Below, in pieces: positions 1,031-57,061 of a DNA stretch of 64,000 nt. Made by a program: the position numbers and the translations under genes. Numbering within the stretch: position 1 is the first letter of the stretch; each line of letters opens with the position of its first letter. The notes below the pieces were generated by a model, which was given only the letters and a program-made list of their open reading frames with translations, searched no databases and was not told where the DNA came from. Origin of the DNA: Candidatus Latescibacterota bacterium. Lineage in GTDB: Bacteria; Latescibacterota; UBA2968; GCA-2709665. The stretch is taken from the NCBI GenBank assembly GCA_965208835.1, contig OZ242358.1, positions 2,080,001-2,144,000 of the forward strand, in the 5' to 3' direction.

Positions 1031-1861
1031 ATGCCGGTTAAATCGTTCCGACCGTTCACACCGTCGCTGCGGTTCAAGACCGTTTCCTCCTTTGATGAGA
1101 TTACCCGGTCTCAACCCGAGAAATCGCTTGTTGAGGCGAACCGGAAGAGCGGTGGACGAAACAACATGGGCCGCATCACGAGCCGGCGTCGCGGCGGAGG
1201 ACATCGCCGGCACTACAGGGTTATTGACTTCAGACGCAATAAACCCGGTGTACCGGCAAATGTTAATTCAATAGAGTACGATCCGAATCGCTCCGCCAGA
1301 ATTGCGCTTCTCCACTATGCAGACGGCGAGAAACGTTATATTCTCGCACCTTCGGGCCTGAGGGTTGGCGCTCAGGTGGAGTCCGGCCCCGACGCCGACG
1401 TACGGCCCGGAAACGCACTGCCTCTGGAGAAGATCCCGCAGGGAACGCATGTGCACAATGTCGAATTGCAGCCCGGCAAGGGCGGACAACTGGGTCGTTC
1501 GGCCGGCGCCGAAATCCAGATCATGGCCAAGGAAGGCAAGTTCGCTCAACTCCGCCTGCCTTCCGGCGAGGTCCGCCTGGTACCGGTAACCTGCTATGCC
1601 ACGGTCGGCCAAGTGGGGAATCAGGAACACGAAAACGTCGTTTTGGGTAAAGCGGGTCGCAACAGGTGGCTCGGAAAGCGCCCGTCCGTGAGGGGAGTGG
1701 CGATGAATCCCATCGATCACCCGCACGGGGGCGGGGAAGGACGCGCTTCGGGCGGCGGACATCCGGTAACGCCTTGGGGCGTGCCCACGAAGGGATACAA
1801 GACGAGAAAACGCAAGAAACAGTCCAACAAACTGATCGTGAGAAGGCAACGAAAGAGATAG
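1031..1861 (+). CDS. rplB: 50S ribosomal protein L2
   Basis: [12 protein letters not shown] and [18 protein letters not shown] motifs. Confidence 0.98.
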
Positions 1862-1938
1862 CAGTCCGTTTATAAAGTCGCTCTGCAGGCGAGGGCGAGA
1901 GCCGGCCGCAGTTCGGAACGGCTCTTTCAACGGGCTGA
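1861..1938. mobile_element. MITE-like repeat family A, short copy (78 bp)
   Basis: Ends GCAGTCCGTT...TCAACGGGCTGA; begins inside the rplB TAG; shares AAAGTCGCTCTGCAGGCGAGG with the other copies. Confidence 0.75.
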
Positions 1939-1958
1939 CAAGCCCCAGCGAGGATTGA

Positions 1959-2246
1959 ATGGCACGGTCGCTGAAAAAAGGACCCTTCGTGGATCCGGGT
2001 CTTCAGGCGAAGATCGAGGGGATGAACAAATCGGGCAATAAGCGCGTGATTCAGACGTGGGCACGTCGTTCGACCATTTCACCCGAGTTCGTCGGTCATA
2101 CGCTGGCTGTGCACAATGGGAACAAGTTCATTCCCGTGTACATCACGGAGAATATGGTGGGTCACAAGCTGGGTGAGTTCGCCCCCACGCGCACTTTTCG
2201 GGGGCACACGGGAAGCCTCACCGAGCGTTCGACGGGGCTGAAATAG
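1959..2246 (+). CDS. rpsS: 30S ribosomal protein S19
   Basis: [12 protein letters not shown] and [11 protein letters not shown] motifs. Confidence 0.98.
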
Positions 2247-2322
2247 CTTCGGCAGGCTTTCGCGCCGGTTGTCCCCGTCATTCCTGCCGGCGGGGCGGCT
2301 GTTTTATCAGGGGAGAATTTCA

Positions 2323-2664
2323 ATGACGGCCAGGGCCGTATCCAGATACGTCAGGATTTCACCCCGAAAAGCACGACAGGTCGTCGATCTTGTTCGCGGC
2401 AAAGGGGTTGAAGAGGCGTTTCACATTCTTCAGTTTACACCCAAGAAGGCCGCCCGACTTGTAGAGCGCACACTCCGGTCCGCAGTGGCCAACGCCGCCA
2501 ATAGCGAAGCTTCTACGGTCAGGGAAGAAGACCTTTACGTACAGGAGGCGTTCGTGAACGGCGCCATCGCCATGCGTCGGGTCCGCCCAATGCCGAGAGG
2601 CGCGGCCGGGTTTATCCGAAAACGCTGCAGCCATATCACGCTGGTCGTGTCGGACGTCGATTAG
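2323..2664 (+). CDS. rplV: 50S ribosomal protein L22
   Basis: ATG after a GGAG SD; RISPRKAR, SAVANA and SHIT motifs. Confidence 0.95.
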   Translation: MTARAVSRYVRISPRKARQVVDLVRGKGVEEAFHILQFTPKKAARLVERTLRSAVANAANSEASTVREEDLYVQEAFVNGAIAMRRVRPMPRGAAGFIRKRCSHITLVVSDVD

Positions 2665-2682
2665 CCGTCGGGAGGGTTTCTT

Positions 2683-3339
2683 TTGGGCCAGAAAACACAT
2701 CCAACAGGGTTCCGTCTGGGCATCGTGAAGGACTGGCGATCCCGCTGGTTTGCCGGAAGGGATTTTGCCGAACTGCTCAAGGAAGACTTGATGTTGCGGC
2801 GCTACATCCAGAGCAGGCTGCAACGGGCAAGCGTGTCTCAAATCGAGATAGAGCGCGCGCCGAAACGGGTAACTATTTCGGTGCATACCGCGCGCCCGGG
2901 AATCGTAATCGGCCGTAAAGGGCAAGAGGTCGACAAGCTCAGAGACGAGCTGAAACACATCACCGGGAAAGAGATCTACATAAATATTCAGGAAATCAAG
3001 CGGCCGGAACTGAATGCGCAGCTGGTTGCCGACAATATCGCACGCCAGCTGGAGCAGCGCGTATCGTTTCGCCGGGCGATGAAAAAGGCGATCGCTTCGG
3101 CGATGCGTATGGGCGCAGACGGAATCAAGATTGTATGCGGAGGGCGCTTGGGCGGTGCGGAAATGGCGCGGATCGAAAAGTCGGAACCCGCCGGCAGAGT
3201 GCCGTTGCATACGCTCCGCGCCGACATCGACTACGCAACCTCGACGGCCTTTACAACCTCGGGCACGGTGGGGGTCAAGGTCTGGGTGTGTCACGGCGAG
3301 GTCGTGGAACGCCGAGCACCGGGCGGGCCTGCGCAATAA
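2683..3339 (+). CDS. rpsC: 30S ribosomal protein S3
   Basis: [13 protein letters not shown] and [14 protein letters not shown] motifs. Confidence 0.98.
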
Positions 3340-3371
3340 TTGGCAATGAGGATCTGTAAGGATCAGACTCC

Positions 3372-3791
3372 ATGTTAATGCCGAAAAGGGTCAAGTGGCG
3401 AAAGCAGCAGCGTGGGCGTATGCGCGGCATGGCGCATCGGGGGAGCAGGATTGCTTTCGGGGAATTCGCGCTCCAGGCACTGGAACCCGGCTGGATCACC
3501 AGCCGGCAGATCGAGGCGGCGCGTGTGGCGATCACCCGCGCACTCGGGCGCGGAGGGAAAGTCTGGATTCGGCTGTTTCCCGACAAACCGGTCACCATCA
3601 AGCCCGCCGAGACCCGAATGGGCAAGGGCAAAGGGAATCCCGAATACTGGGTGGCGGTTGTAAAGCCGGGGCGCATCATGTTCGAAATCGACGGAGTTGA
3701 GCGGGAGAGCGCCCGGGAAGCTATGCGCAAGGCCGGCCACAAGATGCCCATAAAGACCCGGTTTATCGAACGGGGAGACACCGAGGAATGA
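3372..3791 (+). CDS. rplP: 50S ribosomal protein L16
   Basis: [11 protein letters not shown] and RMGKGKG motifs. Confidence 0.98.
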
Positions 3792-4033
3792 AAGCCAGCG
3801 AGATTCGTCAGATGACGCAGGGCGAGGTCGATGAGTTGCTTGGCGACAGACTCGAGGAGTTGTCAAACCTGAGAATTCAGCTTGTCACACAGCAGCTGGA
3901 CAATCCACTCCGGGTGAAGTCGGTCCGGAGGGACATCGCCCGAATCAGAACGGTACTGAAGGAGCGCGCACTGGAGCTGAACGCCTCCAGCGGTGCGGCC
4001 GGTACCGAATCCACCGGATCGGAAGGAAACTAG
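3788..4033 (+). CDS. rpmC: 50S ribosomal protein L29
   Basis: MKASEIR...RRDIARIRT; short low-complexity tail. Confidence 0.93.
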
Positions 4034-4036
4034 ACT

Positions 4037-4303
4037 ATGGCACAAACCGACGCGCGCGGACGTCGAAAAACCCTTGTGGGTCGGGTGCTGAGCAATCAGG
4101 CCAATAAGACAATCGTCGTGGAAGTCACCTGGCGAACGCCGCATCCCCTTTACGGCAAGGTCGTCCGTCGTCGTTCCAAATTCGCGGCGCACGACGAGAA
4201 CAACTCCGCGAATGCCGGCGACACCGTACTGATTATGGAGACCCGCCCGATCAGCAAGACAAAACGGTGGCGTCTTACAGAGATTCTGGAAAAGGCTCAA
4301 TAG
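4037..4303 (+). CDS. rpsQ: 30S ribosomal protein S17
   Basis: HPLYGK, AHDE and [11 protein letters not shown] motifs. Confidence 0.97.
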
Positions 4304-7961: not shown

Positions 7962-8025
7962 CTTTCCGGGGATGCATCTCTACAGGACCGGTCCGTAGGA
8001 ACCGGGTCGCTTCCTCTCAAGAGTA

Positions 8026-8172
8026 GCAGCCCGTTGAAAAAGCCCATCCGGGCTGCGGCCGGCCTTGCGGTTGAAATACTGCGTTGTGCGCCCTCGCCGA
8101 ATCGCAGGATGGGACTCGGATGCGCGCCTCGTCTTCGACCTCGCTTGCAGAGCGACTTTTTCAACGGACTTA
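8026..8172. mobile_element. MITE-like repeat family A copy (147 bp) between rpmD and rplO
   Basis: TA-GCAGCCCGTTGAAAAAG...CTTTTTCAACGGACT terminal inverted repeats; highly similar to 22812-22967. Confidence 0.85.
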
Positions 8173-8186
8173 TAAGGACCGCCAGA

Positions 8187-11707: not shown

Positions 11708-12724
11708 ATGAAGCCTAAGAACTTCCAGATGCCCAGATCCGTGCAGATCGATGAGGATAGCCTCACCAATTCTTACGGTTTGTTCACAGTGCAACCTCTG
11801 GAACGTGGATTTGGTACCACTATCGGCAATGCGTTGCGCCGCGTATTGCTCTCATCAATTGAAGGTGCGGCCGTCAAGGCCATCCGGGTAGAAGGCGTGC
11901 AGCACGAGTTCTCCGTTGTACAGGGCGTCGTCGAAGACATGACTGAAATCGTCCTTAATCTCAAAGAGGTAAACCTGCGAATTCATTCGGACGAAGACAA
12001 AGTGCTTCGCATCGACAAGATAGGGCCGGACACGTTGACGGCGAAAGAACTGGAGGTGGACGCCGACGTCGAGGTGATGAATCCCGATCAGCACATCGCA
12101 TCCCTGGATCAGGACAGCCACCTCGAAATGGAGATCATCGTGGGCAAAGGGAGGGGTTATGTGCTGGCCGAAGAGAATAAAGTCACCGATCCCGCCACCG
12201 ATACAATTATGCTCGACTCGGCATTTTCTCCCATCAGAAAGGTGCATTACGAGGTGGACAATGCCCGTGTAGGACAGCAGACAGACTACGATAAGCTCAC
12301 GCTGACTGTCTGGACCAACGGAGCGGTCAGGCCGGATGACGCCGTGTCTCACGCGGCAAAGATATTGAAGGACCATCTGGAGCTCTTTATACACTTCGAG
12401 GAAGAGCCGGAGGAGGAGTACGAGGAAGTTATCGACGAAGACACGCAACGCGTGGCCTCGCTTCTGCAGATGCCGGTGGAAGAACTGGAACTGTCGGTGC
12501 GTTCCGCCAACTGTTTGAAGGCAGCCAATATTCTGACCCTGGAAGATCTTGTCCAGAAGACCGAGACGGAAATGCTGAAGTTCCGGAATTTCGGTCGCAA
12601 GTCGCTGAACGAGTTGACTGCCATCCTGGAAGGACTGGGTCTTCAGTTTGGCATGGATATAGAGAGATACAGCGGGATTGCCCCCAGGGCCGAGGAAGTC
12701 GCGGTGCTGGAAGATGAATTCTAA
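11708..12724 (+). CDS. rpoA: DNA-directed RNA polymerase subunit alpha
   Basis: [21 protein letters not shown] and [10 protein letters not shown] motifs; ATG after AAGGAG. Confidence 0.98.
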
Positions 12725-12936
12725 GAAGCTGTTTTAAAATTCCCAGCGGTCTTCGCGTGGCTGCAAAAGCGCCGGTCGGCGCTGGTCAAACCCACCCAAG
12801 AGTGGCGAGGGGCGCGCAGCCACGATACATTGGATTTGGGCGGATTTTCCCGTCGGCGCTGCGCGACCCTCGCGCCTCATAACCGCCACTTTTTCGCTCG
12901 CGCTCGGGAACTCACCGGTAATTTTAAAACAGCTTC
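12725..12936. mobile_element. MITE-like repeat family B copy (212 bp) between rpoA and rplQ
   Basis: TIRs GAAGCTGTTTTAAAATT / AATTTTAAAACAGCTTC; directly follows the rpoA TAA. Confidence 0.88.
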
Positions 12937-12954
12937 CAAACGGAAAGACGGGCT

Positions 12955-22811: not shown

Positions 22812-22967
22812 GCAGCCCGTTGAAAGAGTCCATCCGGGCTGCGGCCGGCCCTTGCGGTCGAAATACTGCGTTGCGCTCCCTCGCCGAATCGCAGGATGGG
22901 ACTCGGTCGCACGCCTTGTCTTCGGCCACAATACCTCGCCTGCAGAGCGACTCTATCAACGGACTGC
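22812..22967. mobile_element. MITE-like repeat family A copy (156 bp) between purL and folD
   Basis: GCAGCCCGTTGAAAGAG...CTCTATCAACGGACTGC-TA; its end overlaps the purL TAG. Confidence 0.88.
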
Positions 22968-25900
22968 TACGATTCCTCGCACCATTCCCGGGCGTTCTGG
23001 AAGAGCCGCAGCCAGGGCGAAGCGTCCAGGGAATACTTCCAGGATTCCGGCATCCAGCCCCACTGCCACTTCAGAAAAGTCCGTTCGGGATGAGGCATCA
23101 TCGCCAGGTGACGTCCGTCAGGGGAACAGAGGGCTGCGATGCCATGAGGAGAGCCGTTTGGGTTGTACGGATAGACTTCGCTGATGTGATTCCCGTCGTC
23201 GACGTAACGGACGGGCGCCAGGCTGTTCTGAACGACCATGTCCAGCGTGTTCGGATCGGGGAAATGGATCCTGCCTTCACCGTGAGCAATCCATATACCT
23301 AGTGAAGCCCCCGCCATGTTCCTGAGCATCACCGCCGGACTCTCCTGGACCTGTACCGTGACGAAGCGTGACTCGAAACGCCCCGATGAATTCTGGATAA
23401 AGCGCGGTTGAGTCCTGGTCCCGTTTTCCGGTCGGGGTACCCACCCCAGAAGGGCCAACAACTGGCAGCCGTTGCAAACCCCCAGACTGAACGTATCAGG
23501 GCGTTCGTGGAACGACTGAAATTGATCCTGCAGACCCGGATTGAACCGGATGACCCCCGCCCATCCCTTGGCGGAGTCGAGAACGTCCGCATAACTGAAA
23601 CCACCCACGAAGGCGATGCCACGAAATGCGTCCAGCCGGACCCGGTCGGCGTGAAGATCGGACATCGTCACGTCCCAGGGTTCCATGCCCGCCGCATGGA
23701 ACGCCGAAGCCATCTCACGGTCGCCGTTGCTGCCTTCCTCACGTAGGATGGCAACCGGAATCTTCCTCCGGGCCTCCAGTATTTCGGGCGCGGTCGGCGA
23801 AGGCGTGAACGGAAGCGTGTACGCGGGTTTCGTGCGCTGCCTCAGCGAGAGGCGTTCCTGTTCGACACACTGCGGGTTTGCCTGGAGCCGTTCGAGACGG
23901 TAGCTCGTCTCCTCCCAAATGTCACGCAGATTCGCCACGTCGTCGCTGAGAACGGTCTCGCCGTTTACGGCAATCCGTACGGAAGTATCCGCCGTGGTTC
24001 TACCAATGGGAATACAGGGCACGTCTGCGTACTCCAGGGTCTGGAGAACGTGGGGCGCCTTCCCGGCGTGCACTTCGAATACTAGGCCCATCTCCTCGGC
24101 GAACAGCGACGCGATCGGATCTGACGTTGTCGGCAGATCGATGCTGACGCCGCAATTCCCCGCAAAAGCCATTTCAAGCAGACAAGTGACGATGCCGCCG
24201 TCGCTACGGTCGTGGCCCGCGGCCACATTGTCTTCGGCGATGAGCTGTTGGATGGCATTGAACGCGCGTTTCAGCAAACCGGGATCGTCCACGTCGGGCG
24301 GTGTATCGCCGATCTGGCTGTACACCTGGGCGAGGGCGGAGCCGCCCAGGCGGGTCCGCCCTTTCGAAAGGTCGATAAACAGCAGGCGTCCCTCATCAGG
24401 GAGTTTCAGGTCGGGCGTGACTACCTTCGTGACGTCCGGACTGGTGACATAGGTCGAAACAACCAGGGTGCCCGGTGCGGTTACGGTCTCGTCGTACCCA
24501 TCGGGTCCGGGTGCCAGCGCGGCCATGGAGAGACTGTCCTTCCCGCCGTCTATGGCGATTCCCAGGTCAAGCATAATCTCCACCAGGGACTTGGCTGCAT
24601 CGTATAGCGCGGCGCCTTCGCCCGGCAGTTTCGCGGCCCACATCCAGTTTCCGGAGCACTTAACGTCTTCCAGCGCGCTAACCCGCGCCCATACCAGATT
24701 CGTCAGCGCCTCTCCGACGGTCATCCGGGCCATCGCTTCCGGGTCCAGCAGACCGATTACCGGCTGCTCCCCGATGGACGTTGCGGCCCCGGTAATTCCG
24801 AAATGGCTTTGTGCGATCACGGCGACGTCCGAGACCGTGAGCTGAAGTGGACCCGCGCATTGCTGACGTGCAACCAGGCCCGTGACGCTCCGGTCCACCT
24901 TGTTGGTCAGAAATCGCTTGGAGCCAACCGACACGAGGCGCAGCACCCTCTTCAACGCGGATCCCGCTGTGATGTCCTCCGGTAGTTCGAGTGGCGTCAA
25001 TTCGGGTTGTTTGCGATACAATTCGAAGCTCTTGCGCGGCATGTCGCCCAGCACTTTGTCCAATTCCAGGTCAACCGGCGTGGTGTTGTCGTTTTCGTCG
25101 TAGAGGACAATTCTTCCGTTTCCGGTTACGTGTCCCACAAACGCCGCCTCGATCTTTTCCCGTCGGCACAGTGCCCTGAAGGCCATCTCGTGTCGGTGAT
25201 GCAGAAGCAGGGCGTCGTTTTCCTGGTATTCGGCGCCCCAGATCTCCAGCACGGATAGCGACCGGTCGCCGACGGGCAGCTCGCGAACCTGGATGCGGGC
25301 GCCTTCCGGCGCCACGATTTCCTTGAGTACGTTGCAGTTTCCGCCTGCCCCCTGGTCGTGGATGCTGATGATGGGGTTCTCGTCGCCCATTTCAACGCAG
25401 GCGCGGATTACCCTGTTTACTTTCTGCTCCATTTCCGCATCGCCTCGCTGCACGGCATTGAAGTCCAGTTCCGCCGTATTCTCGCCCTGCACCATCGACG
25501 AAGCCGCTCCACCTCCCATCCCGATACGGTATGCGGGACCTCCGAGTTTGACCACCCACATCTTCTTCTCGGGGCTTCCCTTCGTCGTGTGCCGGGCATC
25601 GATCTGGCCGATGCCCCCGGTGAACATGATGGGTTTAATCCACTCGCGGCGCTCACCGTTCGGCAGTCGCAGACCGAAGGCGCGCGTATAGCCCTGGATG
25701 AGCGGTTCACCAAATTTGTTTCCGTAGTCGGATGCGCCGTTGCTGGCTTCTATCTCGATCCGCAGTGGCGACGCGAAATTGTCGGAATATTCGAACGCCC
25801 GGTCCTCCCAGGGCAACTCATAGCCGGGTATACGGAGATTGCCAACACAGTAGGCTGCGGTGCCGGCGACAACCAGAGAGCCGCGACCGGCGGCATGTAC

Positions 25901-26878: not shown

Positions 26879-26905
26879 CAATTCCTTTCCGGCGCCGTTA
26901 ATTAG

Positions 26906-27115
26906 GAAGCTGTGTTAGAATTCCCGGCGAGTTCCCGGGCGCGAGCGAAAAAGTGACGGTTAAGAGGCAACAGGGGCGCGCAGCGCTGGCGGGCGAATTC
27001 GACTATGAGAGGCGAGCAAGCGCAGCCTCGATCTCGTAAGACGGGCGAATTTGACCAACGCCGACCGGCGCCTTTGCAGCAGTGCGAAGACCGTTGAGGT
27101 TTCTAGTACAGCTTC
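26906..27115. mobile_element. MITE-like repeat family B copy (210 bp, diverged, reverse orientation)
   Basis: GAAGCTGTG...TACAGCTTC ends; internal GCGAGCGAAAAAGTGACGGT and TTGACCAACGCCGACCGGCG match other copies; abuts the HAD gene TAA. Confidence 0.8.
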
Positions 27116-27910
27116 TTAAGCGTCGATACGGGACGGAAGCAATTCCTTTAAGGATCTGATGATTCGATCCGGACGGATTCCACTGTTTTCCGGCAGACCT
27201 GCCCCTTTTGCGTCGTTCCATACGCAGTAGATGCCCAGTCCCTGCGGAACCACCACCTCCCACTCCAGGTTGTCGCCCACCATCCACGCGTCCCCGGGCG
27301 TGGCGTCCAGGCCGCGGAGTGCGTCCATATAGATCCGGGTATCCGGTTTGCCGTAACCACATTCGCCTTCGATGAAAATGGCGTCGAAGAAGGGCGCAAG
27401 ATTGAATCTGCGTATCTTATCCCGCTGGGGCCCGGCGCCCCCGTTGGTTACCAGGGCCATCCTCACACCGCATTCTCGGAGCTTGCGAAGCGTTTCGAGG
27501 GCGCCTGGAAAAGGCTTTATCGTCTTTCCGCGTTCACGTTCGTACGATTCTGCGATCGTTCCCGCCAGTTCCCAGTTTTCAACGCCAAGACGGCAAAGGC
27601 CATGGTGGACGACGCGCTGAATCGCGAGCGGCATGTTCTGGCGGTTCGCCCGATGCCGATTGGGATCGGACCAGAACCACGTTCGGGTTTCGGCCAGCGT
27701 CCTGTACAACTTCTCTCCACCGACCCCCTCAATTCTGTCTGCCACATTGTGGCAGACCCGTTTCCAGCATGGTCCCGCATACGTGGAGTAGGAGACGATG
27801 GTATCGTCCAGATCCATTAGCATCGCGACGGGAAGGTCCAAGACGGAGTCCCTTGCCAGGCCGGGGTCAACTGCCCGCGGGAAGTGATCGTCGTGGTGTG
27901 GGAACGGCAC
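27116..27910 (-). CDS. HAD-superfamily hydrolase
   Basis: Motif I MDLDDT; VTNG, GKPD and VGDNLEWE motifs; start may be later. Confidence 0.88.
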   Translation of the reverse strand: MPFPHHDDHFPRAVDPGLARDSVLDLPVAMLMDLDDTIVSYSTYAGPCWKRVCHNVADRIEGVGGEKLYRTLAETRTWFWSDPNRHRANRQNMPLAIQRVVHHGLCRLGVENWELAGTIAESYERERGKTIKPFPGALETLRKLRECGVRMALVTNGGAGPQRDKIRRFNLAPFFDAIFIEGECGYGKPDTRIYMDALRGLDATPGDAWMVGDNLEWEVVVPQGLGIYCVWNDAKGAGLPENSGIRPDRIIRSLKELLPSRIDA

Positions 27911-28096
27911 AACTAATATTAGCGTACGACAATCTATATTGCTAATTTATAAATTTGATAAAATAAATAAATAAATTTTATCGATCTTCCGTGTCCGGAC
28001 GCGGGGTACCATCCCGATTAGACCGGCCTCAAGCCTTGAAACGACGCGTAGAGGAGACCGGGGAAGATGCCGTTCCGTGCGTCGAAGTCGAGCCTA

Positions 28097-28197
28097 TCAG
28101 TCCGTTGATAAAGTCGCTCTGCAGGCGAGGCCGCGCAACGCAGTATTTCGACCGCAAGGGCCGGCCGTAGACCGGATGGGCTTTTTCAACGGACTGC
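28097..28197. mobile_element. MITE-like repeat family A copy (101 bp, internally deleted)
   Basis: TA-TCAGTCCGTTGATAAAG...CTTTTTCAACGGACTGC-TA. Confidence 0.85.
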
Positions 28198-28264
28198 TAT
28201 GGACGGATTAAGTGGCGGGCGAGTTTACCGGCACGTTAACTTGATGTACCGAACCTGATTTTGA

Positions 28265-30952: not shown

Positions 30953-31160
30953 GAAGCCGTCTTAAAACTCCCAGCGGTCTTGGAGGGCTGTGAAAGCGCC
31001 GGTCGCGTTGGTTAAACCCGCCAGTATACAGAGGTCGAGGCTGTGCTTGCTCGCCTCTCTTGGGAGGATTCTCCCGTCGGCGCTGCGTGCCCCTCGCGCC
31101 TCATAACCGATGCTTCTGCGCTCGCACTCGGAAACTCACCGGGAATTCCAAAACAGCTTC
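30953..31160. mobile_element. MITE-like repeat family B copy (208 bp, diverged)
   Basis: GAAGCCGTCTTAAAA...CAAAACAGCTTC; flanks TTA/TCA. Confidence 0.8.
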
Positions 31161-33250: not shown

Positions 33251-33562
33251 ATGATACTGACAGACGGCCTTAACCGCGGTGAGACCACATTTGTAACGAT
33301 CTACGGGCGTCAATACCCCGTTCAGAGTCGTGAGTCGTCTGAATATACCCAACGGGTTGCAGACCTTGTCGATCGGCGTATGAAGGAGATCGCATCTCAG
33401 CAGAAGCTGGCCGAACCCACGAAAATAGCTATAATCGCGGCATTGGATATCGCCGACAGGCTGCTGAAGTTCCGGTCGGGACGCGAAGCGGCGGGCCGGC
33501 AGGCCGAGGAGATTGCGGCGCGTCTGACAATGTTACTGGACGAAGAGGATGGCGGCGCCTAG
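33251..33562 (+). CDS. zapA: Cell division protein ZapA
   Basis: VTIYGRQYPV, VADLVDRRMKEI and KIAIIAALDIAD followed by a coiled coil. Confidence 0.88.
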   Translation: MILTDGLNRGETTFVTIYGRQYPVQSRESSEYTQRVADLVDRRMKEIASQQKLAEPTKIAIIAALDIADRLLKFRSGREAAGRQAEEIAARLTMLLDEEDGGA

Positions 33563-33716
33563 TGTTCTGTCCCGGAAATAAGTTGCCTGAATTCGACCGA
33601 GGAGTCGCCCGTCTCGCAAGGCGCCTCCGACCTGCGTAAGGTCGGCGAGCGAGGGGAACGTAGCGAGACGGGATGAATCGACGGTCGAATGGTGAGAAAT
33701 TTTTGGGACAGGACAC
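33562..33716. mobile_element. MITE-like element family C (155-bp long hairpin)
   Basis: TIRs GTGTTCTGTCCC / GGGACAGGACAC; nested inverted repeats; starts inside the zapA TAG. Confidence 0.6.
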
Positions 33717-33718
33717 AA

Positions 33719-33771
33719 GCGGTCCGTTGATAACGTCGCTCTGCAGGCGAGGCCGTTTCAACACGGGCCGA
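33719..33771. mobile_element. MITE-like repeat family A, collapsed copy
   Basis: GGTCCGTTGATAACGTCGCTCTGCAGGCGAGGCC followed by a degenerate right end TTTCAACACGGGCCG. Confidence 0.7.
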
Positions 33772-39911: not shown

Positions 39912-39934
39912 AACGGAATCCCCTTTTGATGTTG

Positions 39935-40096
39935 GAAGCTGTTTTAAAATTACCGGTGAGTTCCCGAGCGCGAGCGAAAAAGTGACGGTCAAGGCGGGAA
40001 AATCCGCCCATATTTGTCTATACGGGTGGGTTTGACCAACGCCGACCGGCGCTTTTGCAGCCGTGCGAAGACCGCTGGGAATTTTAAGACAGCTTC
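39935..40096. mobile_element. MITE-like repeat family B copy (162 bp, reverse orientation)
   Basis: GAAGCTGTTTTAAAATT...ATTTTAAGACAGCTTC; near-identical reverse complement of 56900-57061. Confidence 0.9.
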
Positions 40097-40204
40097 TTAG
40101 TCCGCTGGCGATTTGAAACGGCTGACGCACGCGCCGCAGGTGGGGGCGTGTGAATAAAGGTCTCGAATCGTGGTGGCGTTTAGCCGATGAATTGAGGTTG
40201 CCGG

Positions 40205-41053
40205 ATGCCGTTACAGGCTTTCATCCTGGTTTTGATCTCCACCGTCATGCATGCCGCGTGGAATTTCGCGGTTCGAAAAGCGTCCGGCAGTCTGGCGGTT
40301 CTGTGGGTGGGCAAGTGGTTCGCGGTGGCCCTGTGCCTTCCGGCCTTCTGCTATTTCCCCCTCGGCGCCGATGCGGTTGCGGCGGCATGGCCCTTTATCG
40401 CGGCTACGGGACTGGCCCATACGGTATATTTCCTGATGCTGGCCAAAGCATACGAAGAGGGGGAGATTTCGGTGGTGTACCCTCTCGCGCGGGGCACCGG
40501 CGTCGGAGGGACGGCGCTGGCGGCGTGGATTCTTATCGACGAGCAGCTTACGATGCCGGGTGTGGTGGGAATCGTGACCGTCGTGCTTGGAATTATCCTT
40601 CTTGGCGTCGCCGATTTGCGAACGCCGAAGAACCGCCGGTCCCTGGCGTACGCACTCTGTGTCGGCGTAACGATCGCAGTCTATTCCGTCGTGGACAAGC
40701 AGGGCGTATCGCATATTCATCCCGTGCATTACGTCTTTTCCCTTTTCCTTATTCCAGCGGTACTCCTGTCCCCCTACGTGCTCTTGCGACACCGGCCGTC
40801 AGTGGTCCGGACGTGGTGCGGACTCAAGAGATATGCGCTCTGGGCGGGGCCCGGTTCCATGGCGACGTATCTGCTCGTACTGTTTGCAATGCGCCTTGGC
40901 AAGGTCAGCTATATACTCGCCGTCAGGGAGTTCTCCGTGGTCATCGGCGCCGCCCTGGGTGTTCTCTTCCTGGGCGAGCGATTCGGATGGCACAAAGCCA
41001 CGGGGATTGCCGCGATTGTGCTGGGCCTGGCGCTGGTCAAGCTGGGCGGCTAG
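40205..41053 (+). CDS. EamA/DMT family transporter
   Basis: HAAWN, ISVVYPLARG, YSVVDK and VREFSVVIG motifs; about 10 TM helices. Confidence 0.9.
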   Translation: MPLQAFILVLISTVMHAAWNFAVRKASGSLAVLWVGKWFAVALCLPAFCYFPLGADAVAAAWPFIAATGLAHTVYFLMLAKAYEEGEISVVYPLARGTGVGGTALAAWILIDEQLTMPGVVGIVTVVLGIILLGVADLRTPKNRRSLAYALCVGVTIAVYSVVDKQGVSHIHPVHYVFSLFLIPAVLLSPYVLLRHRPSVVRTWCGLKRYALWAGPGSMATYLLVLFAMRLGKVSYILAVREFSVVIGAALGVLFLGERFGWHKATGIAAIVLGLALVKLGG

Positions 41054-41222
41054 GCTGCCGGGAAGCAGCAAAAACAGCTTCCAACGTCAGCGCCCTGACG
41101 AGGCGGCACCGGAACCGGCGCAGCAAGACAGGATGGATCAGCGTTCCAAGATAGCCGGAGGGAGAGGTAGGGTCAAGCGCTTATCTCCCGTGTGAGGATG
41201 CCCCTGGAACGGGAGATTTCGC

Positions 41223-41251
41223 TTTACAGGCAATCGGCCGCTCCGTATCAT
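41223..41251 (+). promoter_or_regulatory. Possible sigma70 promoter for the GH38-like gene run
   Basis: TTTACA-17 bp-TATCAT; the family A element starts right after the -10 box. Confidence 0.45.
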
Positions 41252-41252
41252 A

Positions 41253-41414
41253 ACAGTCCGTTGATAAAGTCGCTCTGCAGGCGAGGCCGAGCCATTATGG
41301 CCGAAGACAAGGCGCGCGACCGAGTCCCATCCTGCGATTCGGCGAGGGAGCGCAACGCAGTATTTCGACCGCAAGGGCCGGCCGTAGCCCGGATGGACTT
41401 TTTCAACGGGCTGA
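41253..41414. mobile_element. MITE-like repeat family A, longest copy (162 bp)
   Basis: TA-ACAGTCCGTTGATAAAG...CTTTTTCAACGGGCTGA-TA. Confidence 0.88.
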
Positions 41415-41480
41415 TAAGGCGCCTTATTGTGACGATCCGACAACGCACGACGGCCTACCTGACCGGTGGTCGAAATCTCC

Positions 41481-44012
41481 ATGTCGAAAGACGCATTACA
41501 CGTTGTCCCTTTTTCCCGGCTCACACTCTTCGGATTGGGCGACAAAGAGGCGTGCCTGTCTCGCGCAGCGCAGGTCATCTCACAGGTCCTGCGCCTGGTG
41601 GAATCCAGGGAAGATTTCAGTTTCTCAATCGAGAACTCGGTCCATCTGAGCGCTTATCTCAGGTCGCATCCCGAGGCGGCGGCGCGGGTCCGGAAGGCGG
41701 TTTCCCGTGGGCGTCTGGAATTGGGGGCTGCCTGGACCCAGATGGATCACCGTCTGTCCGCCGACGAAGACCTGGTCCGAAATCTGCTCTACGGAAAGGC
41801 CTTCGCCCGCGAGGCGCTCGGCGTGGACCCGACAGTTGTGCATCTGGGTGACGGGGGAGGCACGACTTCGCAATACGTGCAGGCCGCCTTCAAGTGTGGA
41901 GTCAAGCATGTCGTAATCACCGGGACAGGATGGAAGCAGCCCGTTCTGTTCCGCTGGCAGGCGCCGGATGGCTCGCAGGTGATCTGCTGGAACGCAACCG
42001 GGGGAAGCGGGCTGCTCTGGGAAGCCGTTCGCGGAACGCCGCAGTCCAGGCGGCTCCGAAACGCGGAAATTGCACGTCAACGCGAGATGCACGAAGGGAG
42101 GTTGCCGCTGCATTGGGGCGGGCCGATGGTTCAGCCGTGCGAAACCGCCGTGGACGAGTTGCTGGAGTGGGCCGAGGACGAAGCGATCCGCATAAGGCTT
42201 GGGACGCCGTCGAGCGTCATCCCGAAGTCTCAATTGGAAGAGCGACTGCCGGAGGTCGACGCCGCGAATCCGCCCGGTGGATCGCATCTGGAACCGGTGT
42301 TCCCGGGAACCGCGCCCCTGAACGACCGGGCTGTCTGCGGGCTGTCGCGTGCAGAGCAGTTGTCGGCCATGGCGGAGAGTCTCGTTTCGTTCACCTATCC
42401 TCGTGCGGCCCTCGAATCGGCGTGGCTGCGGCAACTGGAGTCGACGTCGTACCGTTACGACGGCGTGGCTTCGGAGGAGGGACTGGAGTACAGGCGGACC
42501 GACCAGCAGAACGTGATTGCGACGGCGTCAGGGATCGTGTGCCAGGCTGAACGGATGATCGCGGAACGGGTGACGCCCCGCGACGGTCCGGACGGCAGGA
42601 TGCCCGTCGTGGTATTCAATCCGCTTTCGTGGACGCGTACCGGCCTGGCGGAAATCCATGTCACGTTTTACGGGGCGGTGGAAGGGACCGACTTTTCCCG
42701 GTACGAAACATATAAGCTGGTTGATGCTTCCGGTCGGACGGTGCCGTTCCAGGAACTGGCGGGCAGACAGACCGAGACCGCCGAAGTGCGTCTGATGTTT
42801 ATGGCTCGCCAGGTTCCGGCAAACGGATATGCGACCTATTATCTCGTTCCCGGCGTTACGGAAACGCAGCCGCTTGTGGGCATCCATCAGCCGGAGACGA
42901 TGGCGCCGGGGCTGATGGCGCCTGAATTCCCTGAGCCCAGCTTTGTACTGGAAGACGTCGAGGACCGCGTGTCCGAAGCATTCGGGAGCGTGCGGATCGG
43001 CCGCCGTTTCAGGACGGCTTCCGTCGACCTCGAAGTTGACGAAATAACCGGTCGCGTGCGCGTGTCGGACAGAAGCGCGGACGGTCCGCTGGTCGACGGA
43101 ATTCATCTCATTGGCACCGAGGAAGCCCTGACCGACCGATCCGCCGTCACCGGCAGGCGGTTCGAGATGGCGGTCGAACGCGTCGATCTCGAAGAGAGCG
43201 GCGAGGTGCGGGCGACGTTGCTCGTGGCCGGAAAGCTGTTGTCGTCTCCATGTGAGATCAGATACCGGGTTTACGGCGAACTGGACCGGGTGGACGTGGA
43301 TCTCCGGATCCAGTGGCAGGACCGGAATCCCGTTAGAGTGCAGATGGTCTTCCCGGTCGCCGCCGGCGCCATCCGGTATGGGACGCCTCACGGCCATCAG
43401 AAACTCGAGGAAGCCGGGGGTGGAAACGCCTCGCTCGAAGTGCAGCGGATCTGTCAGGGATGGGTGGCCGTGGATGGACCCGATCGCGGCTTCGTGATCG
43501 CATCGGACCGGAAGGCGTTTCAGTTCGGCGCCGGCGAAGTGCGCGGCGAGGTCCTGCATTCAGGGCTCGACCCTGCATCGTATTCCTATAACGTCATATG
43601 GCGCGGGTTTCCGGACGCGGTGACGAGTAGATATTCCATCCGGGCATATAACGGCGATTTCGCGCGGGGAAACGCCTTCCGGGACGGATGGGAACTCCGC
43701 CAGGCTTTGAACGCCAGGGTCGTGTATGACCTGGTTTCAGAGAAATCATTGCCGGATCGAATGCAGTTCATCAACCTCGAGGGCCCCGGGATTGTTTGTA
43801 CGGCAATTAAACAGGCGGAAGACGGCGAAGGACTGATCGTGCGGGCTTACGAGACCGTCGGCGGCACATGCGAAGCCCGGCTGGTCTCGTGCCGCAATGT
43901 CGTCTCGCTCCATGAAACGGACCTTATGGAACGCCGCGTTCGGGATCTGGACGTCGACGCCATCGCATTCACCCCCTTCGAAATCAAGACCCTTCGGGTT
44001 GTGTTGAACTGA
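41481..44012 (+). CDS. Glycoside hydrolase family 38 (alpha-mannosidase)-like protein with degenerate metal site
   Basis: GRLELG.W, EDLVRNLLYG, FRWQAPDGS, VFNPLSWTR, IKQAEDG..LIVRAYE and PFEIKTL motifs. Confidence 0.8.
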   Translation: MSKDALHVVPFSRLTLFGLGDKEACLSRAAQVISQVLRLVESREDFSFSIENSVHLSAYLRSHPEAAARVRKAVSRGRLELGAAWTQMDHRLSADEDLVRNLLYGKAFAREALGVDPTVVHLGDGGGTTSQYVQAAFKCGVKHVVITGTGWKQPVLFRWQAPDGSQVICWNATGGSGLLWEAVRGTPQSRRLRNAEIARQREMHEGRLPLHWGGPMVQPCETAVDELLEWAEDEAIRIRLGTPSSVIPKSQLEERLPEVDAANPPGGSHLEPVFPGTAPLNDRAVCGLSRAEQLSAMAESLVSFTYPRAALESAWLRQLESTSYRYDGVASEEGLEYRRTDQQNVIATASGIVCQAERMIAERVTPRDGPDGRMPVVVFNPLSWTRTGLAEIHVTFYGAVEGTDFSRYETYKLVDASGRTVPFQELAGRQTETAEVRLMFMARQVPANGYATYYLVPGVTETQPLVGIHQPETMAPGLMAPEFPEPSFVLEDVEDRVSEAFGSVRIGRRFRTASVDLEVDEITGRVRVSDRSADGPLVDGIHLIGTEEALTDRSAVTGRRFEMAVERVDLEESGEVRATLLVAGKLLSSPCEIRYRVYGELDRVDVDLRIQWQDRNPVRVQMVFPVAAGAIRYGTPHGHQKLEEAGGGNASLEVQRICQGWVAVDGPDRGFVIASDRKAFQFGAGEVRGEVLHSGLDPASYSYNVIWRGFPDAVTSRYSIRAYNGDFARGNAFRDGWELRQALNARVVYDLVSEKSLPDRMQFINLEGPGIVCTAIKQAEDGEGLIVRAYETVGGTCEARLVSCRNVVSLHETDLMERRVRDLDVDAIAFTPFEIKTLRVVLN

Positions 44013-50152: not shown

Positions 50153-50920
50153 GTGTTGCCCAGCATGCGCCTGGAGGACAAGGTCGTGATGGTAACGGGT
50201 GCCGGTTCCGGCATCGGCAGGGCCGTGGCCATAGCGGTAGCCGAGGCCGGGGCGCATTGTGTGCCCTGCGAATTGCCGGAAAAGACCGATGACGTGGAGG
50301 GCGTCTGCGCCGAGATCGAACGTCTGCAACGGCGGGCGCTGCCCGTTTCCCTGCGCCTGCCGGACCTGGACAGCATTGAACTGGCCGTAGATATAGCCGT
50401 GACGGAGATGGGGCGGATCGACGTGCTGGTGAACAACGCCGGTGTGAATATTCCCAGAGAGGCGCTGGAAGTCGACGAGGCGGACTGGGACGCCGTGATG
50501 GACGTGAATCTGAAGGGTCTGTTCTTCATGTCCCAGCGGGCCGGACGCAGGATGGTGAACGCCGGAGGAGGAAAGATCGTCAATATCGCCTCGCAAAACG
50601 GAGTGATCGGGTACTATCGCCGCGCGGCCTACTGTTCGAGCAAAGCGGGTGTGGTGAATCTGACCCGTGTGCTGGCGCTCGAGTGGGCGCCGCACGGAAT
50701 CAACGTGAACGCCGTCGGTCCCACGTTCATCCTCACCCCCCTGACGCAGTCCACGTTCGACGATCCGGCGCTACGGGAGGATCTGTTGAAGCGGATTCCT
50801 CTGGGACGGGTGGGGCGGCCCGAGGACGTCGTGGGCGCCGTGGTCTTCCTCGCGAGTCCGGCCGCGGACCTGATCACGGGGCATACGCTGCTGGTTGACG
50901 GAGGCTGGACGGCCGTCTAG
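50153..50920 (+). CDS. Short-chain dehydrogenase/reductase
   Basis: TGAGSGIG, NNAG, YCSSK and VDGG motifs. Confidence 0.93.
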   Translation: MLPSMRLEDKVVMVTGAGSGIGRAVAIAVAEAGAHCVPCELPEKTDDVEGVCAEIERLQRRALPVSLRLPDLDSIELAVDIAVTEMGRIDVLVNNAGVNIPREALEVDEADWDAVMDVNLKGLFFMSQRAGRRMVNAGGGKIVNIASQNGVIGYYRRAAYCSSKAGVVNLTRVLALEWAPHGINVNAVGPTFILTPLTQSTFDDPALREDLLKRIPLGRVGRPEDVVGAVVFLASPAADLITGHTLLVDGGWTAV

Positions 50921-50953
50921 CCGCCCATAGAAAGAGCCCATCCGGGCTACGGC
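50920..50953. repeat. Family A remnant (one end only)
   Basis: TAG-CCGCCCATAGAAAGAGCCCATCCGGGCTACGGCC resembles the family A end GCAGCCCGTTGAAAGAGTCCATCCGGGCTGCGGCC. Confidence 0.6.
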
Positions 50954-50979
50954 CCAACCCTGTTGAACTGGATACAAGA

Positions 50980-54655: not shown

Positions 54656-54686
54656 CCGTAATTCGAAAGAGGATATCCGTTAAATT

Positions 54687-54770
54687 GGCCACAATGAGCG
54701 CAAAAGCACAAAAAGCACAGAAGGCGACGGTACGAATCGTCGCGGCCTGTCCATCCTGTTTATCCATGTG
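54687..54770. repeat. Short periodic repeats flanking a hairpin
   Basis: (A)AAAAGCAC tandem, hairpin GCGACG/CGTCGC, then CCTGTCCAT-CCTGTTTAT-CCATGT. Confidence 0.5.
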
Positions 54771-54811
54771 AGTTTTCGTTTCTGAATTAATCGGGTTAAA
54801 GGAGGTGCGGA

Positions 54812-55780
54812 ATGAAGCTCGTTACGTATGGTATCGGTAGAGACCGCTACGTAGGGTCCGTCGCGGCGGATGGCCGAATCGTCGTGGATCTCGCGGCCGC
54901 GGAAGGAGAACTGGCCGGCGGCCAGGGCCGGGAAGCGCGCGGATATTTCAGCGATATGCTCGCGTTGCTCGATGCGGGCGGGGCCGGTCTGCGCGCGGCG
55001 AAACAGGTAACGCGATTCGCAGAGGGCCGGCTTGGCGGGGACGCGGACGGGCGGCTCGGCCACCCGATCGGCAAGGTGCGGCTCAAGGCGCCCGTGCCGA
55101 ATCCCCGCAAGGTGTTCTGCCTCGCGGGCAACTATCAGGACCACATTGAAGAAGGCGGGGGAAAAATAGCCATCCAGGACAAGGAAACGCCCCGCGTATT
55201 CATGAAGCCGCCGTCTACGACCGTAATCGGCCCCGGAGACCGCATCCTGATTCCGCCAGTCGCCAGGTCGATCGACTGGGAGGGGGAGTTGGCCGTCGTG
55301 ATGGGACGCAAGGCGAAAGCCGTCAAGGCGGAAGAGGCGCTGAAATACGTGGCCGGATATACCATCATGAACGACGTCTCGGAACGGGACCTGGTTATCA
55401 AGGAACGCACCGACAGCCGCGAACGCGACATGTGGTTCGACTGGCTGAACGGAAAGTGGCTGGATACGTTCGGGCCCCAGGGGCCGTGGATCGTGACCTC
55501 GGACGAGATTCAGGATCCGCAGTCGCTGGAGATCAGCACCTACGTGAACGGCGAGAGAAAACAGAACAACAACACGGGGCAGATGTTATACCCTGTCGAT
55601 ATGATCATCGAATATATCTCGGCGATCATCACACTCGAACCGGGCGACCTGATCAGCACCGGCACGATTTCCGGAGTGGGCGCGACCACGGGGACCTTCA
55701 TGAAGCCCGGTGACCGCGTGGAAATCGAAATCTCGGGAATCGGTGTCTTGCGGAATGGGGTGGCGGCAAGCAAATGGTGA
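54812..55780 (+). CDS. Fumarylacetoacetate hydrolase family protein
   Basis: NYQDH, FMKP, DWEGEL, NDVSERD, GKWLDTF and STGT motifs. Confidence 0.92.
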   Translation: MKLVTYGIGRDRYVGSVAADGRIVVDLAAAEGELAGGQGREARGYFSDMLALLDAGGAGLRAAKQVTRFAEGRLGGDADGRLGHPIGKVRLKAPVPNPRKVFCLAGNYQDHIEEGGGKIAIQDKETPRVFMKPPSTTVIGPGDRILIPPVARSIDWEGELAVVMGRKAKAVKAEEALKYVAGYTIMNDVSERDLVIKERTDSRERDMWFDWLNGKWLDTFGPQGPWIVTSDEIQDPQSLEISTYVNGERKQNNNTGQMLYPVDMIIEYISAIITLEPGDLISTGTISGVGATTGTFMKPGDRVEIEISGIGVLRNGVAASKW

Positions 55781-55855
55781 CCGGTTGACGCGGACCCCGG
55801 TAATGTTCGTCGTGCAGGGCGAGGTGCCAATTTTGAAAATCCCGGGAATGGTGAT

Positions 55856-56887
55856 ATGGACGCAAGGAGCAAACGCAAGATCAACTGGTACCGTTGCCCG
55901 CTGGACCGTGAGACGCTGAACGCATTGAATCGGCGCAGCGACTCGCTGGGGTTCCTGCAGACCCTGGGCCACCTCGGCGTACTCACGCTCACCGGTGCGT
56001 CTGCCTGGTATGCATCTGAACATCTTGCGCCGCCCTTCCTGATCCTGGCTCTTTTTCTGCACGGTACCGGCTACGCGTTTTTGTTGAACGGGTTTCACGA
56101 GTTCTGTCACGGCACCGTGTTCCGATCGAGGTGGTTGAACGTGGTGTTTCTCAAGGTCTTCAGTTTCATGGGCTGGTACAATCCCGTATTCTTCTGGACC
56201 AGCCACTCCAAGCACCACCAGTTCACCCTTCATCCTCCGGACGATATGGAAGTTGTCCTGCCGGTGGAAATAACGCTCAGGAGCTTTCTCAAGGCCGCGG
56301 TGGTCAATCCATGGGGTTTGTACAACAGACTGAAGGGTGTGGTCCGGTTGAGCCTGGGCAAACTGGAGGGTCCATGGGAGCGTGTGCTGTTTCCCGAGTC
56401 TGAACCCGCGCTGCGGCGACGCCTGTTCAACTGGGCCCGCATCCTGCTTGCGGGGCACGCGGTGCTTGCTGGCGTATCGATCTATTTCGGATTGTGGATG
56501 CTTCCGCTGCTGGTCACGCTGGCTCCCTTCTACGGCGGGTGGCTTCTCTTCCTCTGCAACAACACGCAGCACGTCGGACTTCAGGACAACGTGCCTGACT
56601 TCCGGTTGAACAGCCGGACGGTCATTCTGAACCCGCTGTTCCGTTTTCTCTATTGGCATATGAACTACCACATCGAACATCACATGTACGCCGCGGTACC
56701 CTGCTATCGCCTGGGGAAACTGCACAGGCTGATCGTGGCGGACATGCCCCGGTGCCCCGTCGGCCTCCTCTCTTGCTGGAAGGAGATAATCGGCATTCTC
56801 AAAAAGCAGAAAGCGGACTCCGGATACCAGTTTACGGCTGAACTGCCCGCGCGGGTGGACGGTTACGATCCAAGGCCCGCGGATTGA
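55856..56887 (+). CDS. Membrane di-iron fatty-acid-desaturase-family enzyme (MocD-like)
   Basis: His boxes HEFCH, HSKHH, QH and YHIEHH. Confidence 0.88.
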   Translation: MDARSKRKINWYRCPLDRETLNALNRRSDSLGFLQTLGHLGVLTLTGASAWYASEHLAPPFLILALFLHGTGYAFLLNGFHEFCHGTVFRSRWLNVVFLKVFSFMGWYNPVFFWTSHSKHHQFTLHPPDDMEVVLPVEITLRSFLKAAVVNPWGLYNRLKGVVRLSLGKLEGPWERVLFPESEPALRRRLFNWARILLAGHAVLAGVSIYFGLWMLPLLVTLAPFYGGWLLFLCNNTQHVGLQDNVPDFRLNSRTVILNPLFRFLYWHMNYHIEHHMYAAVPCYRLGKLHRLIVADMPRCPVGLLSCWKEIIGILKKQKADSGYQFTAELPARVDGYDPRPAD

Positions 56888-56899
56888 CCTCCTCCATAA

Positions 56900-57061
56900 G
56901 AAGCTGTTTTAAAATTCCCAGCGGTCTTCGCGCGGCTGCAAAAGCGCCGGTCGGCGTTGGTCAAATCCACCCGTATAGACAAATATGGGCGGATTTTCCC
57001 GCCTTGACCGCCACTTTTTCGCTCGCGCTCGGGAACTCACCGGTAGTTTTAAAACAGCTTC
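56900..57061. mobile_element. MITE-like repeat family B copy (162 bp) with TAA target duplication
   Basis: TAA-GAAGCTGTTTTAAAA...TTTTAAAACAGCTTC-TAA. Confidence 0.92.

Follow-up and report, generated by a model that had tools for sequence, protein, structure and literature searches.

The window analysed here, a stretch of 64,000 nucleotides of contig OZ242358.1 (positions 2,080,001 to 2,144,000, forward strand) from a Candidatus Latescibacterota bacterium, contains copies of three families of short repeats, called A, B and C. All three are repeated throughout the 5.18-Mb genome, where family A occupies 180 loci (120 with both ends), family B 156 (124 with both ends) and family C 96 (66 with both ends), and their termini differ, as proposed by the first-pass annotation, which had described three families with unrelated ends. 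Full copies measure about 60–250 nt, carry terminal inverted repeats of 16–20 nt, contain no open reading frame and fold back on themselves (z = −4.3 to −8.6); they are intergenic, crude gene calls enclosing just 3 A copies out of 138 and none from B or C. The same annotation had suggested that the stems of all three families are interrupted by 5'-RAG opposite 5'-GYA, and that a single recognition module is thus being spread in different shells of miniature inverted-repeat transposable elements (MITEs). Every string that it cited was found at its coordinates, including the family C example at 33609–33671, in which the CTCGC-AAG...AAC-GTA-GCGAG stretch occupies 33612–33668.

Family A is represented by a full 169-nt form at 41251–41419 (+), flanked by ATAA on both sides, with a foldback of −79.4 kcal/mol (z = −5.1). 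A copy at 22812–22973 (−) is 95% complementary to 41288–41413, and a divergent one lies at 8024–8174 (−). Shorter versions include a deletion form of about 85 nt at 1859–1942 (+) and a form of about 108 nt at 28095–28202 (+), the latter apparently produced by deletion between two GGCGAGG repeats. A 5'-end fragment at 33717–33755 (+) immediately follows the only C copy of the window, and a fragment at 50918–50954 (−) resembles the 3' end, being 84% complementary to 41380–41416. The C copy itself, at 33560–33716 (+), folds back with −88.2 kcal/mol (z = −8.6). Some C copies contain inserted 21–23-nt hairpin units of another kind.

Family B occurs both with and without an internal hairpin. The basic form, with no such module, is found at 39932–40100 (−) and 56897–57064 (+), the former 96% complementary to the latter. 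The copy at about 12725–12936 (+), whose limits follow from loose contig ends at positions 12724 and 12936, contains two modules in opposite orientation, one with a GTGGC stem (12802–12823, +) and one on the arm with a GGCGC stem (12855–12876, −). In the copy at 26902–27118 (−), the apex module (27009–27029, +) has a GAGGC stem and the loop GAGCAAGCGCA, the commonest form, which recurs genome-wide in 42 exact copies. The same B copy has a decayed arm module near 26965–26986. The copy at 30953–31160 (+) has modules at 31037–31057, where ACA replaces GCA, and at 31079–31100, both on the minus strand.

The flanks bear the marks of transposition. Logos of the flanking sequence give YTAR-like targets for A, TNA for B and CTAG-like targets for C, and the two flanks agree for A in 35 of 89 copies (4 nt), for B in 40 of 79 (3 nt, TNA in every case) and for C in only 5 of 27. 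Insertion polymorphism was looked at for one B and one A copy of the window. An empty-site joint, 12724>12942, which lacks the B copy 12725–12936, was found in second-study contigs (runs X5 and X6), and the A copy 41251–41419 is missing at the orthologous site in two related genomes (G015 and G018) and present in a third (G009).

A partner could be assigned to family B alone. In a relative (genome G021, locus L110, 1457–2416), a 958-bp element flanked by TTA duplications has ends that differ from the 20-nt end of B at 2 and 4 positions, and it encodes a 280-aa transposase of the IS5 family (NF033580, E = 1.2e-66; PF01609 plus PF13340). The first-pass annotation had suggested a search for transposase genes with matching ends, of IS5-like or HUH type; such an element exists for B, in a relative, and none was found for A or C, nor any HUH gene in this genome. 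PF01609, PF13340, PF05598, PF01797 and PF07282 gave no match in the A/B/C host genome, which is 97.8% complete, and it contains neither an HUH nor a TnpB gene; within the taxonomic family, PF01609 was present in 17 genomes out of 22. The sole pair of A, B or C ends lying more than 306 nt apart in this genome flanks an ordinary 422-aa gene, no full-length element with such ends was found in 104 loci from relatives, and de novo inverted repeats at 20 transposase loci matched for B's partner only. The genome thus carries some 430 copies but has lost every matching transposase, so that A, B and C are probably stranded here.

No homology between the families beyond nested copies was detected in profile searches. 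The best pairwise local alignment, an A–C block of 18/22 (z = 3.4), scored 24 against a shuffle maximum of 27. The C profile matched A loci 17 times in nhmmer, and the two matches inspected were A copies with nested C pieces; such pieces sit inside some A copies.

The proposed motif takes a different form in each family. In A, the two foldback arms bring GAG and GYA face to face as a 2x3 loop (C-GA-G opposite C-GYA-G). The local hairpins that had been drawn for A have stems of only 2 bp and are absent from the minimum-energy folds of whole elements; the GC-GAG...GCA-GT hairpin is likewise missing from the minimum-energy fold of the short form at 1859–1942, and the local hairpin did not appear in the fold of the isolated stretch (z = +0.94). 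The loop bases had been described as fixed while the flanking stems change. This is uninformative where nearly all alignment columns are at least 0.9 conserved across the elements, and false where they are not: the Y position in A is T in 55 and C in 53 copies, and in C only 35 of 54 copies keep GYA intact, its Y and A columns (0.4 and 0.6 conserved) being among the lowest. The motif is accordingly conserved no better than its neighbours in A and worse in C. When 82,944 equally degenerate motif pairs were scored against A, B and C, 53.4%, 15.1%, 1.7% and 0.07% of them matched all three families with 2, 3, 4 and 5 flanking pairs, respectively. The consensus instance in A has 3 flanking pairs, the level at which 15.1% of alternatives match all families, and the sole A instance with at least 5 is private to the divergent copy at 8024–8174.

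In B, the stems do vary and remain paired (GAGGC, GGCGC, GTGGC, GGCAC), and this part of the earlier description stands for B. Among 7 distinct rows, 97.1% of cells were paired, with both-sided change at 2 of 5 pairs, and the covariation score of 0.514 (0.139 in shuffles) was matched by none of 500 shuffles. The segment is laid out as GA, 5-bp stem, GAG, 5–6 nt, GCA, 5-bp stem, GA (about 26–30 nt), and forms an optional hairpin in which RAG/GYA bounds an 11–12-nt loop; isolated modules fold in the same way. The motif does not interrupt a stem, since only 0–3 Watson-Crick pairs are available on its inner side, so that in B it is a terminal loop. The two modules of the copy at 12725–12936, presented as the same motif on opposite strands, fold together into an inverted repeat in which GAG pairs with CUC. 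Of the 124 full B copies, 69 carry a module and 55 lack it. On the B− strand, a single module is found in 38 copies, two in 16 and three in 3; a further 10 copies have a single module on B+, and 2 have one per strand.

The distribution of the module ties it to B. A genome scan returned 100 hairpins in which a 5-bp stem encloses a GAG...GCA loop, 81 of them in B; the 19 elsewhere represent a background level, as the mean per loop type in the same scan was 20.9. Perfect GAG..GTA hairpins numbered 17, of which 5 were in B. Sampling of 14 other genomes placed the module in B in 33 cases out of 34, and no free-standing copy was found in this genome or among those 34 cases. The idea of a module spread in MITE shells is therefore upheld as regards MITE-like shells and a discrete hairpin in B; one module common to the families is not supported, the discrete form having been found only in B.

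What the families do have in common is a style, in which foldback arms are broken on one strand by purine-purine mismatches, often tandem G.A, next to G-C pairs. Unpaired foldback bases are purines in 27 of 40 cases in A, 24 of 30 in B and 30 of 31 in C, and the pooled families show 20 all-purine loops against 2 all-pyrimidine ones (p = 0.00012). A and C each contain 2 tandem GA loops, where simulations gave a mean of 0.02–0.04 (P <= 0.003). One strand is the more stable in 86 of 92 A, 120 of 120 B and 61 of 61 C copies, with energy gaps of 10–21 kcal/mol. Variants common to several copies favour G.U over A.C (56 vs 30, p = 0.007), whereas private changes show no preference for keeping the hairpin (G.U to A.C, 20:14 in A, 15:15 in B and 17:20 in C), and no post-insertion selection was detected from private mutations. 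Orientation is unbiased relative to genes in tandem contexts (46:35, 49:41 and 26:23 for A, B and C) and to replication (61:77, 60:77 and 35:32). In a scan of the genome for tandem mismatches in hairpins, GA/GA was not enriched beyond the three families, ranking about seventh with 19 of 1407 intergenic cases. A fourth repeat, the 'TTCGACARGCTCAGG' hairpin family outside the window, also has the form of a tandem-GA hairpin and lies within C, on the strand opposing that favoured by C; at Rfam E <= 1, its eight loci returned only microRNA and sRNA models far under the cut-offs.

Taken together, we consider it likely that A, B and C are three unrelated non-autonomous foldback MITE families and that RAG...GYA is not one module. 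IS5-family DDE transposases acting in trans would recognise the terminal inverted repeats alone, and we infer mobilisation of this kind for A and C as well. The A motif would be a 2x3 purine mismatch between both foldback arms, the C motif the margin of a large irregular central loop, and the B segment could have originated at the apex of B master copies, reached one arm by flipping or copying, and been carried along as B subfamilies spread. Several observations sit less comfortably with this: the searches of the own genome, of 104 loci from relatives and of 20 transposase loci returned no A- or C-ended partner, few C flanks are identical, simple decay does not account for the strand asymmetry, and few alternative motifs match all families at 4–5 flanking pairs, where the A instance is private to one copy. 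The B segment might instead be a very small insertion, itself mobile or templated, whose entry into hairpin apices does not depend on the transposition of B. This would suit an optional module that is found at two sites, in both orientations and at times as tandem 24-nt units, with GA dinucleotides on both sides, and the foreign hairpin units inserted in C copies offer a parallel. We regard it as very unlikely, given that no free-standing module was found in this genome or among the sampled cases, that the region around it departs from the basic B form by more than a clean insertion, and that each stem variant keeps to a single position and orientation, the pattern that a few ancestral rearrangements spreading with B subfamilies would leave. 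REP/REPIN-like hairpins moved by a RAYT (HUH Y1) transposase are close to refuted. Family A does have GTAG followed by a small hairpin (GCCC-GGAT-GGGC), and GTAG-tagged palindromes are a known REP class (PMC3733652); nevertheless, the genome contains no PF01797 match, the elements have target duplications and terminal inverted repeats of 16–20 nt, 53 of 114 A copies read C in place of the T of GTAG, and orientation relative to replication is unbiased.

Why the mismatches are purines can only be inferred, and one account is that the foldbacks were shaped by selection on a single strand, either single-stranded DNA during mobilisation or RNA, with the G.A-type mismatches, GAG/GYA among them, recognised or structurally required; this would be a wider version of the idea in the first-pass annotation. 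The purine-only mismatches on one strand in all three families, the tandem GA enrichment, the strand energy gaps, the G.U preference of propagated variants, the compensated stems of the B module and the tandem-GA form of the fourth repeat all argue for it. DDE transposases act on duplex ends, however, and the absence of HUH and TnpB genes, the unbiased orientation relative to transcription or replication, the neutral private mutations and the variable GYA columns speak against it, as do the lack of a general tandem-GA excess in the genome and the position of the fourth repeat opposite to the favoured strand of C; in addition, the favoured strand was picked after the fact and founders were few. 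On balance we find this account unlikely. A more specific form holds that the G.A-punctuated one-strand helices of MITEs A and C, the B segment and the 'TTCGACARGCTCAGG' hairpin are a selected signature rather than decay, the single-stranded form being copied, or protected or bound by a factor specific to the lineage, in these uncultured sponge-associated Latescibacterota-like bacteria; we give this only a slim chance.

A, B and C resemble known IS5-family MITEs in their size of 85–250 nt and lack of coding capacity, their terminal inverted repeats and TNA- or YTAR-type duplications, their intergenic positions, presence/absence polymorphism between relatives and whole-length stem-loop, and B also in ends that match an IS5-family element. 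They differ in being unnamed families of uncultured Latescibacterota-like genomes, in a host without such a transposase and with no A or C partner found, and in their unusually one-sided purine mismatches. The Delihas review (PMC3184786) treats long RNA-level stem-loops as a classic MITE feature and notes that MITEs can carry structure or function motifs; according to it, bcr1 is transcribed and ERIC influences mRNA decay. The families share with bcr1 of the Bacillus cereus group and with ERIC/IRU the mobile hallmarks and the compensatory changes that keep the stem-loop, but they show no sense-strand bias relative to neighbouring genes, and their compensated changes are few and subfamily-tied. 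REP/REPIN elements with RAYT are likewise short, abundant, GC-rich intergenic hairpins, whereas A, B and C have target duplications and long terminal inverted repeats, and their host has no RAYT gene. A literature search found no paper joining Latescibacter with MITEs and nothing relevant on tandem G.A hairpins in transposable elements.

The GAG/GUA submotif belongs to loop E of bacterial 5S rRNA, to which the motif had been likened. In both cases GAG faces GUA or GCA beside adjoining G-C pairs, but loop E is internal, with a helix on either side, whereas in B the motif closes a terminal loop and has no inner helix. Its middle base is mostly C rather than U, the motif columns show no special conservation, and Rfam returned 0 matches at gathering score over the whole window.

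A shared module would have been a new RNA or single-stranded DNA recognition module riding on transposons, and the evidence does not support it. What remains are three unnamed and abundant MITE families in an uncultured phylum, with one partner insertion sequence identified in a relative. Between species, A copies are 94–98% alike and the DNA flanking them just 73–90%, which suggests that they spread recently among co-resident bacteria. The restriction of purine mismatches to one strand is a modest oddity, open to testing, that bears on how foldback MITEs stay foldable.

Self-comparison of the window resolved three repeat families, and a BLAST search against its own 5.18-Mb genome recovered 12 window segments that are multi-copy elsewhere. 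Family A copies lie at 1859-1942, 8024-8174 (minus strand), 22812-22973 (minus strand), 28095-28202 and 41251-41419, together with a 5' fragment at 33717-33755 and a fragment resembling the 3' end at 50918-50954. Family B occurs at 12725-12936, 26902-27118 (minus strand), 30953-31160, 39932-40100 (minus strand) and 56897-57064, and family C, quoted in the first-pass annotation without coordinates, at 33560-33716; the A fragment follows it directly (33560-33755). All the strings quoted in that annotation were found where it had located them. Genome-wide, A occupies 180 loci (both ends present in 120), B 156 (124) and C 96 (66), nearly all intergenic according to crude gene calls made for this analysis. 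By the same crude calls, divergent, promoter-side spacers hold 37 of 135 intergenic A copies, 38 of 137 B copies and 11 of 67 C copies, an over-representation relative to 462 of 3644 spacers overall.

The three families carry the hallmarks of MITEs. Each element forms one long imperfect end-to-end hairpin (z = -4.3 to -8.6 versus shuffles), and the duplications at its flanks resemble those of target sites: A shows YTAR-like ones, B TNA and C CTAG-like ones; among copies with recognisable termini, left and right flanks are identical in 35/89 for A, 40/79 for B (all 40 TNA) and 5/27 for C. Insertion sites are polymorphic among relatives: contigs from a second study run from 12724 to 12942 without the B element, dozens of contigs stemming from other copies end precisely at positions 12724 and 12936, and the A copy at 41251-41419, found in the closest relative (97% identity over 1 kb), is missing from the orthologous site of two others, G015 and G018, whose flanks join directly there. 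Many metagenome-assembled genomes whose titles read Candidatus Latescibacterota or Gemmatimonadota contain the 5' end of A. Across 14 congeneric genomes set against positions 40800-41800 of the window, A copies of other species were 94-98% identical to the window copy, versus 73-90% for orthologous flanking DNA, which suggests that A has spread recently between species or gone through very recent bursts.

A search for insertion-sequence genes with matching ends, as the first-pass annotation had advised, was productive for B. In the related genome G021, a 958-bp element with TTA duplications, whose ends differ from the 20-nt B end at 2 and 4 positions, codes for a 280-aa IS5-family transposase (NF033580, E = 1.2e-66; PF01609 and PF13340). 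For the ends of A and C, no autonomous partner turned up in the own genome, the relatives' loci or the transposase loci. The own genome (97.8% complete) gave no match to PF01609, PF13340, PF05598, PF01797 or PF07282, and PF01609 is present in 17/22 genomes of the same taxonomic family. The genome thus harbours about 430 MITE copies, yet IS4/IS5-type, HUH and TnpB transposase domains were undetected in it; sister genomes have up to 89 PF01609 matches. Two inverted A 3' ends, 1304 nt apart, at C1:2533500-2536000 were considered as an A-ended transposase element, and this was rejected, the enclosed gene being an ordinary one of 422 aa and no transposase.

It had been proposed that A, B and C share one internal loop, RAG opposite GYA, likened to the GAG/GUA submotif of bacterial 5S rRNA loop E and spread in different shells. 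In B, alignment of 124 full copies indicated a basic element to which an optional segment can be added, absent from 55 copies; the B- strand carries one module in 38 copies, two in 16 and three in 3, the B+ strand a single module in 10, and both strands carry one each in 2 copies. The module reads GA, 5-bp stem, GAG, 5-6 nt, GCA, complementary stem, GA, with four stem versions (GAGGC, GGCGC, GTGGC and GGCAC). Across 7 distinct rows, pairing holds in 97.1% of cells, 2/5 stem pairs have changed on both sides, and the covariation score of 0.514 was matched by 0/500 shuffles (slid controls, only 0-0.09); therefore the B stem is real, and the claim that stems change while staying paired holds for B. 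In A, the proposed local hairpins have stems of just 2 bp and were not predicted even for the isolated stretch. Several results speak against an internal loop in B: the inside of the motif offers only 0-1 Watson-Crick pairs, and modules folded alone give a 5-bp stem with a terminal 11-12-nt loop (z = -0.1 to -2.0). The two instances in copy 12722-12938, described as the same motif on opposite strands, are arms of one inverted repeat and pair mutually in RNA and DNA minimum-energy folds. In a whole-genome census of hairpins with a 5-bp stem and 9-14-nt loop, GAG...GCA accounted for 100 of 42,703 (mean per loop type 20.9), 81 within B and 19 elsewhere, and 33/34 sampled instances in 14 other genomes, with the same three stems, also lie in B, contrary to one module moving among shells. 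The B hairpin is a real but minor curiosity.

In the predicted full-element fold of A, GYA lies opposite the GA within GGCGAGG, which belongs to the opposing arm; the first site is a 2x3 loop (C-GA-G opposite C-GYA-G) and the second sets C-AA-G opposite C-GCA-G. The first GYA site reads GTA in 55, GCA in 53 and otherwise in 6 of 114 full copies, and the second GCA in 83, GTA in 2 and otherwise in 21 of 106. In C, AAG is kept in 48/50 full copies, and the GYA side (n=54) reads GTA in 26, GCA in 9, GCC in 14 and otherwise in 5. The supposed fixity of the loop bases is not distinctive, as nearly all columns of these young families reach at least 0.9 conservation, and the Y (0.4) and A (0.6) columns of C are among the least conserved. 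When all 82,944 motif pairs of equal degeneracy were scored for matches in A, B and C together, 53.4% succeeded with 2 flanking pairs, 15.1% with 3, 1.7% with 4 and 0.07% with 5; RAG/GYA succeeds at 5 solely via an instance private to copy 8024-8174, and the consensus A instance has 3. Cross-family homology among A, B and C was sought and could not be demonstrated, and the data lend no support to the proposed common module.

Orientation was unbiased relative to genes in tandem contexts (A 46:35, B 49:41, C 26:23; crude gene calls) and to replication direction (A 61:77, B 60:77, C 35:32), and private mutations at paired positions gave G.U:A.C ratios of 20:14, 15:15 and 17:20 for A, B and C; inserted copies therefore decay regardless of the hairpin. 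In each family one strand folds much better than the other (A+ in 86/92 copies, B- in 120/120, C+ in 61/61), and the unpaired foldback bases of that strand are mostly purines (A 27/40, B 24/30, C 30/31). Pooled all-purine loops outnumber all-pyrimidine ones 20:2, tandem GA loops number 2 in A and 2 in C versus 0.02-0.04 in simulated decayed palindromes, and variants common to several copies favour G.U over A.C (56 versus 30). Together these hint that the foldability of one strand acted as a filter on master copies. However, the favoured strand was picked post hoc, few founders stand behind the families, and a genome-wide scan revealed no overall surplus of tandem GA among hairpins. The one-sided purine mismatches are genuine, if a minor curiosity.

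A fourth repeat, with core TTCGACARGCTCAGG, occurs in the genome beyond the window (e.g., positions 100-200 of locus L162, C1:1557169 and C1:1557222). A strict pattern recovers 77 copies, of which 69 fall outside A, B and C, and its reversed control recovers 0. Read on the opposite strand, the repeat looks like a small hairpin in which G.A mismatches stand in tandem (CCCT-GA-G-CYTGT-C-GA-AGGG); Rfam gave no match, copies were unbiased relative to gene strand (26:27), and the GA strand lies on the leading strand in 50/77. Inserts of 21-23 nt resembling this core were observed at two different internal sites in some C copies (e.g., C1:151059-151252 and C1:1044694-1044912), without obvious duplication. 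A composite of about 305 nt, A with a nested C-subfamily copy and flanks ATGGCAAG...CCATGC, occurs about 10 times (e.g., C1:1313, 1220765 and 3416301), and the nested pair seems to have been amplified as a unit.

The Delihas review (PMC3184786) treats long RNA-level stem-loops as a classic trait of MITEs, and also describes structure/function motifs carried by MITEs and compensatory changes in bcr1. Our search for literature joining Latescibacter with miniature inverted-repeat transposable elements found none. A, B and C belong to a known kind of element, ordinary MITEs, and come from an unstudied lineage.
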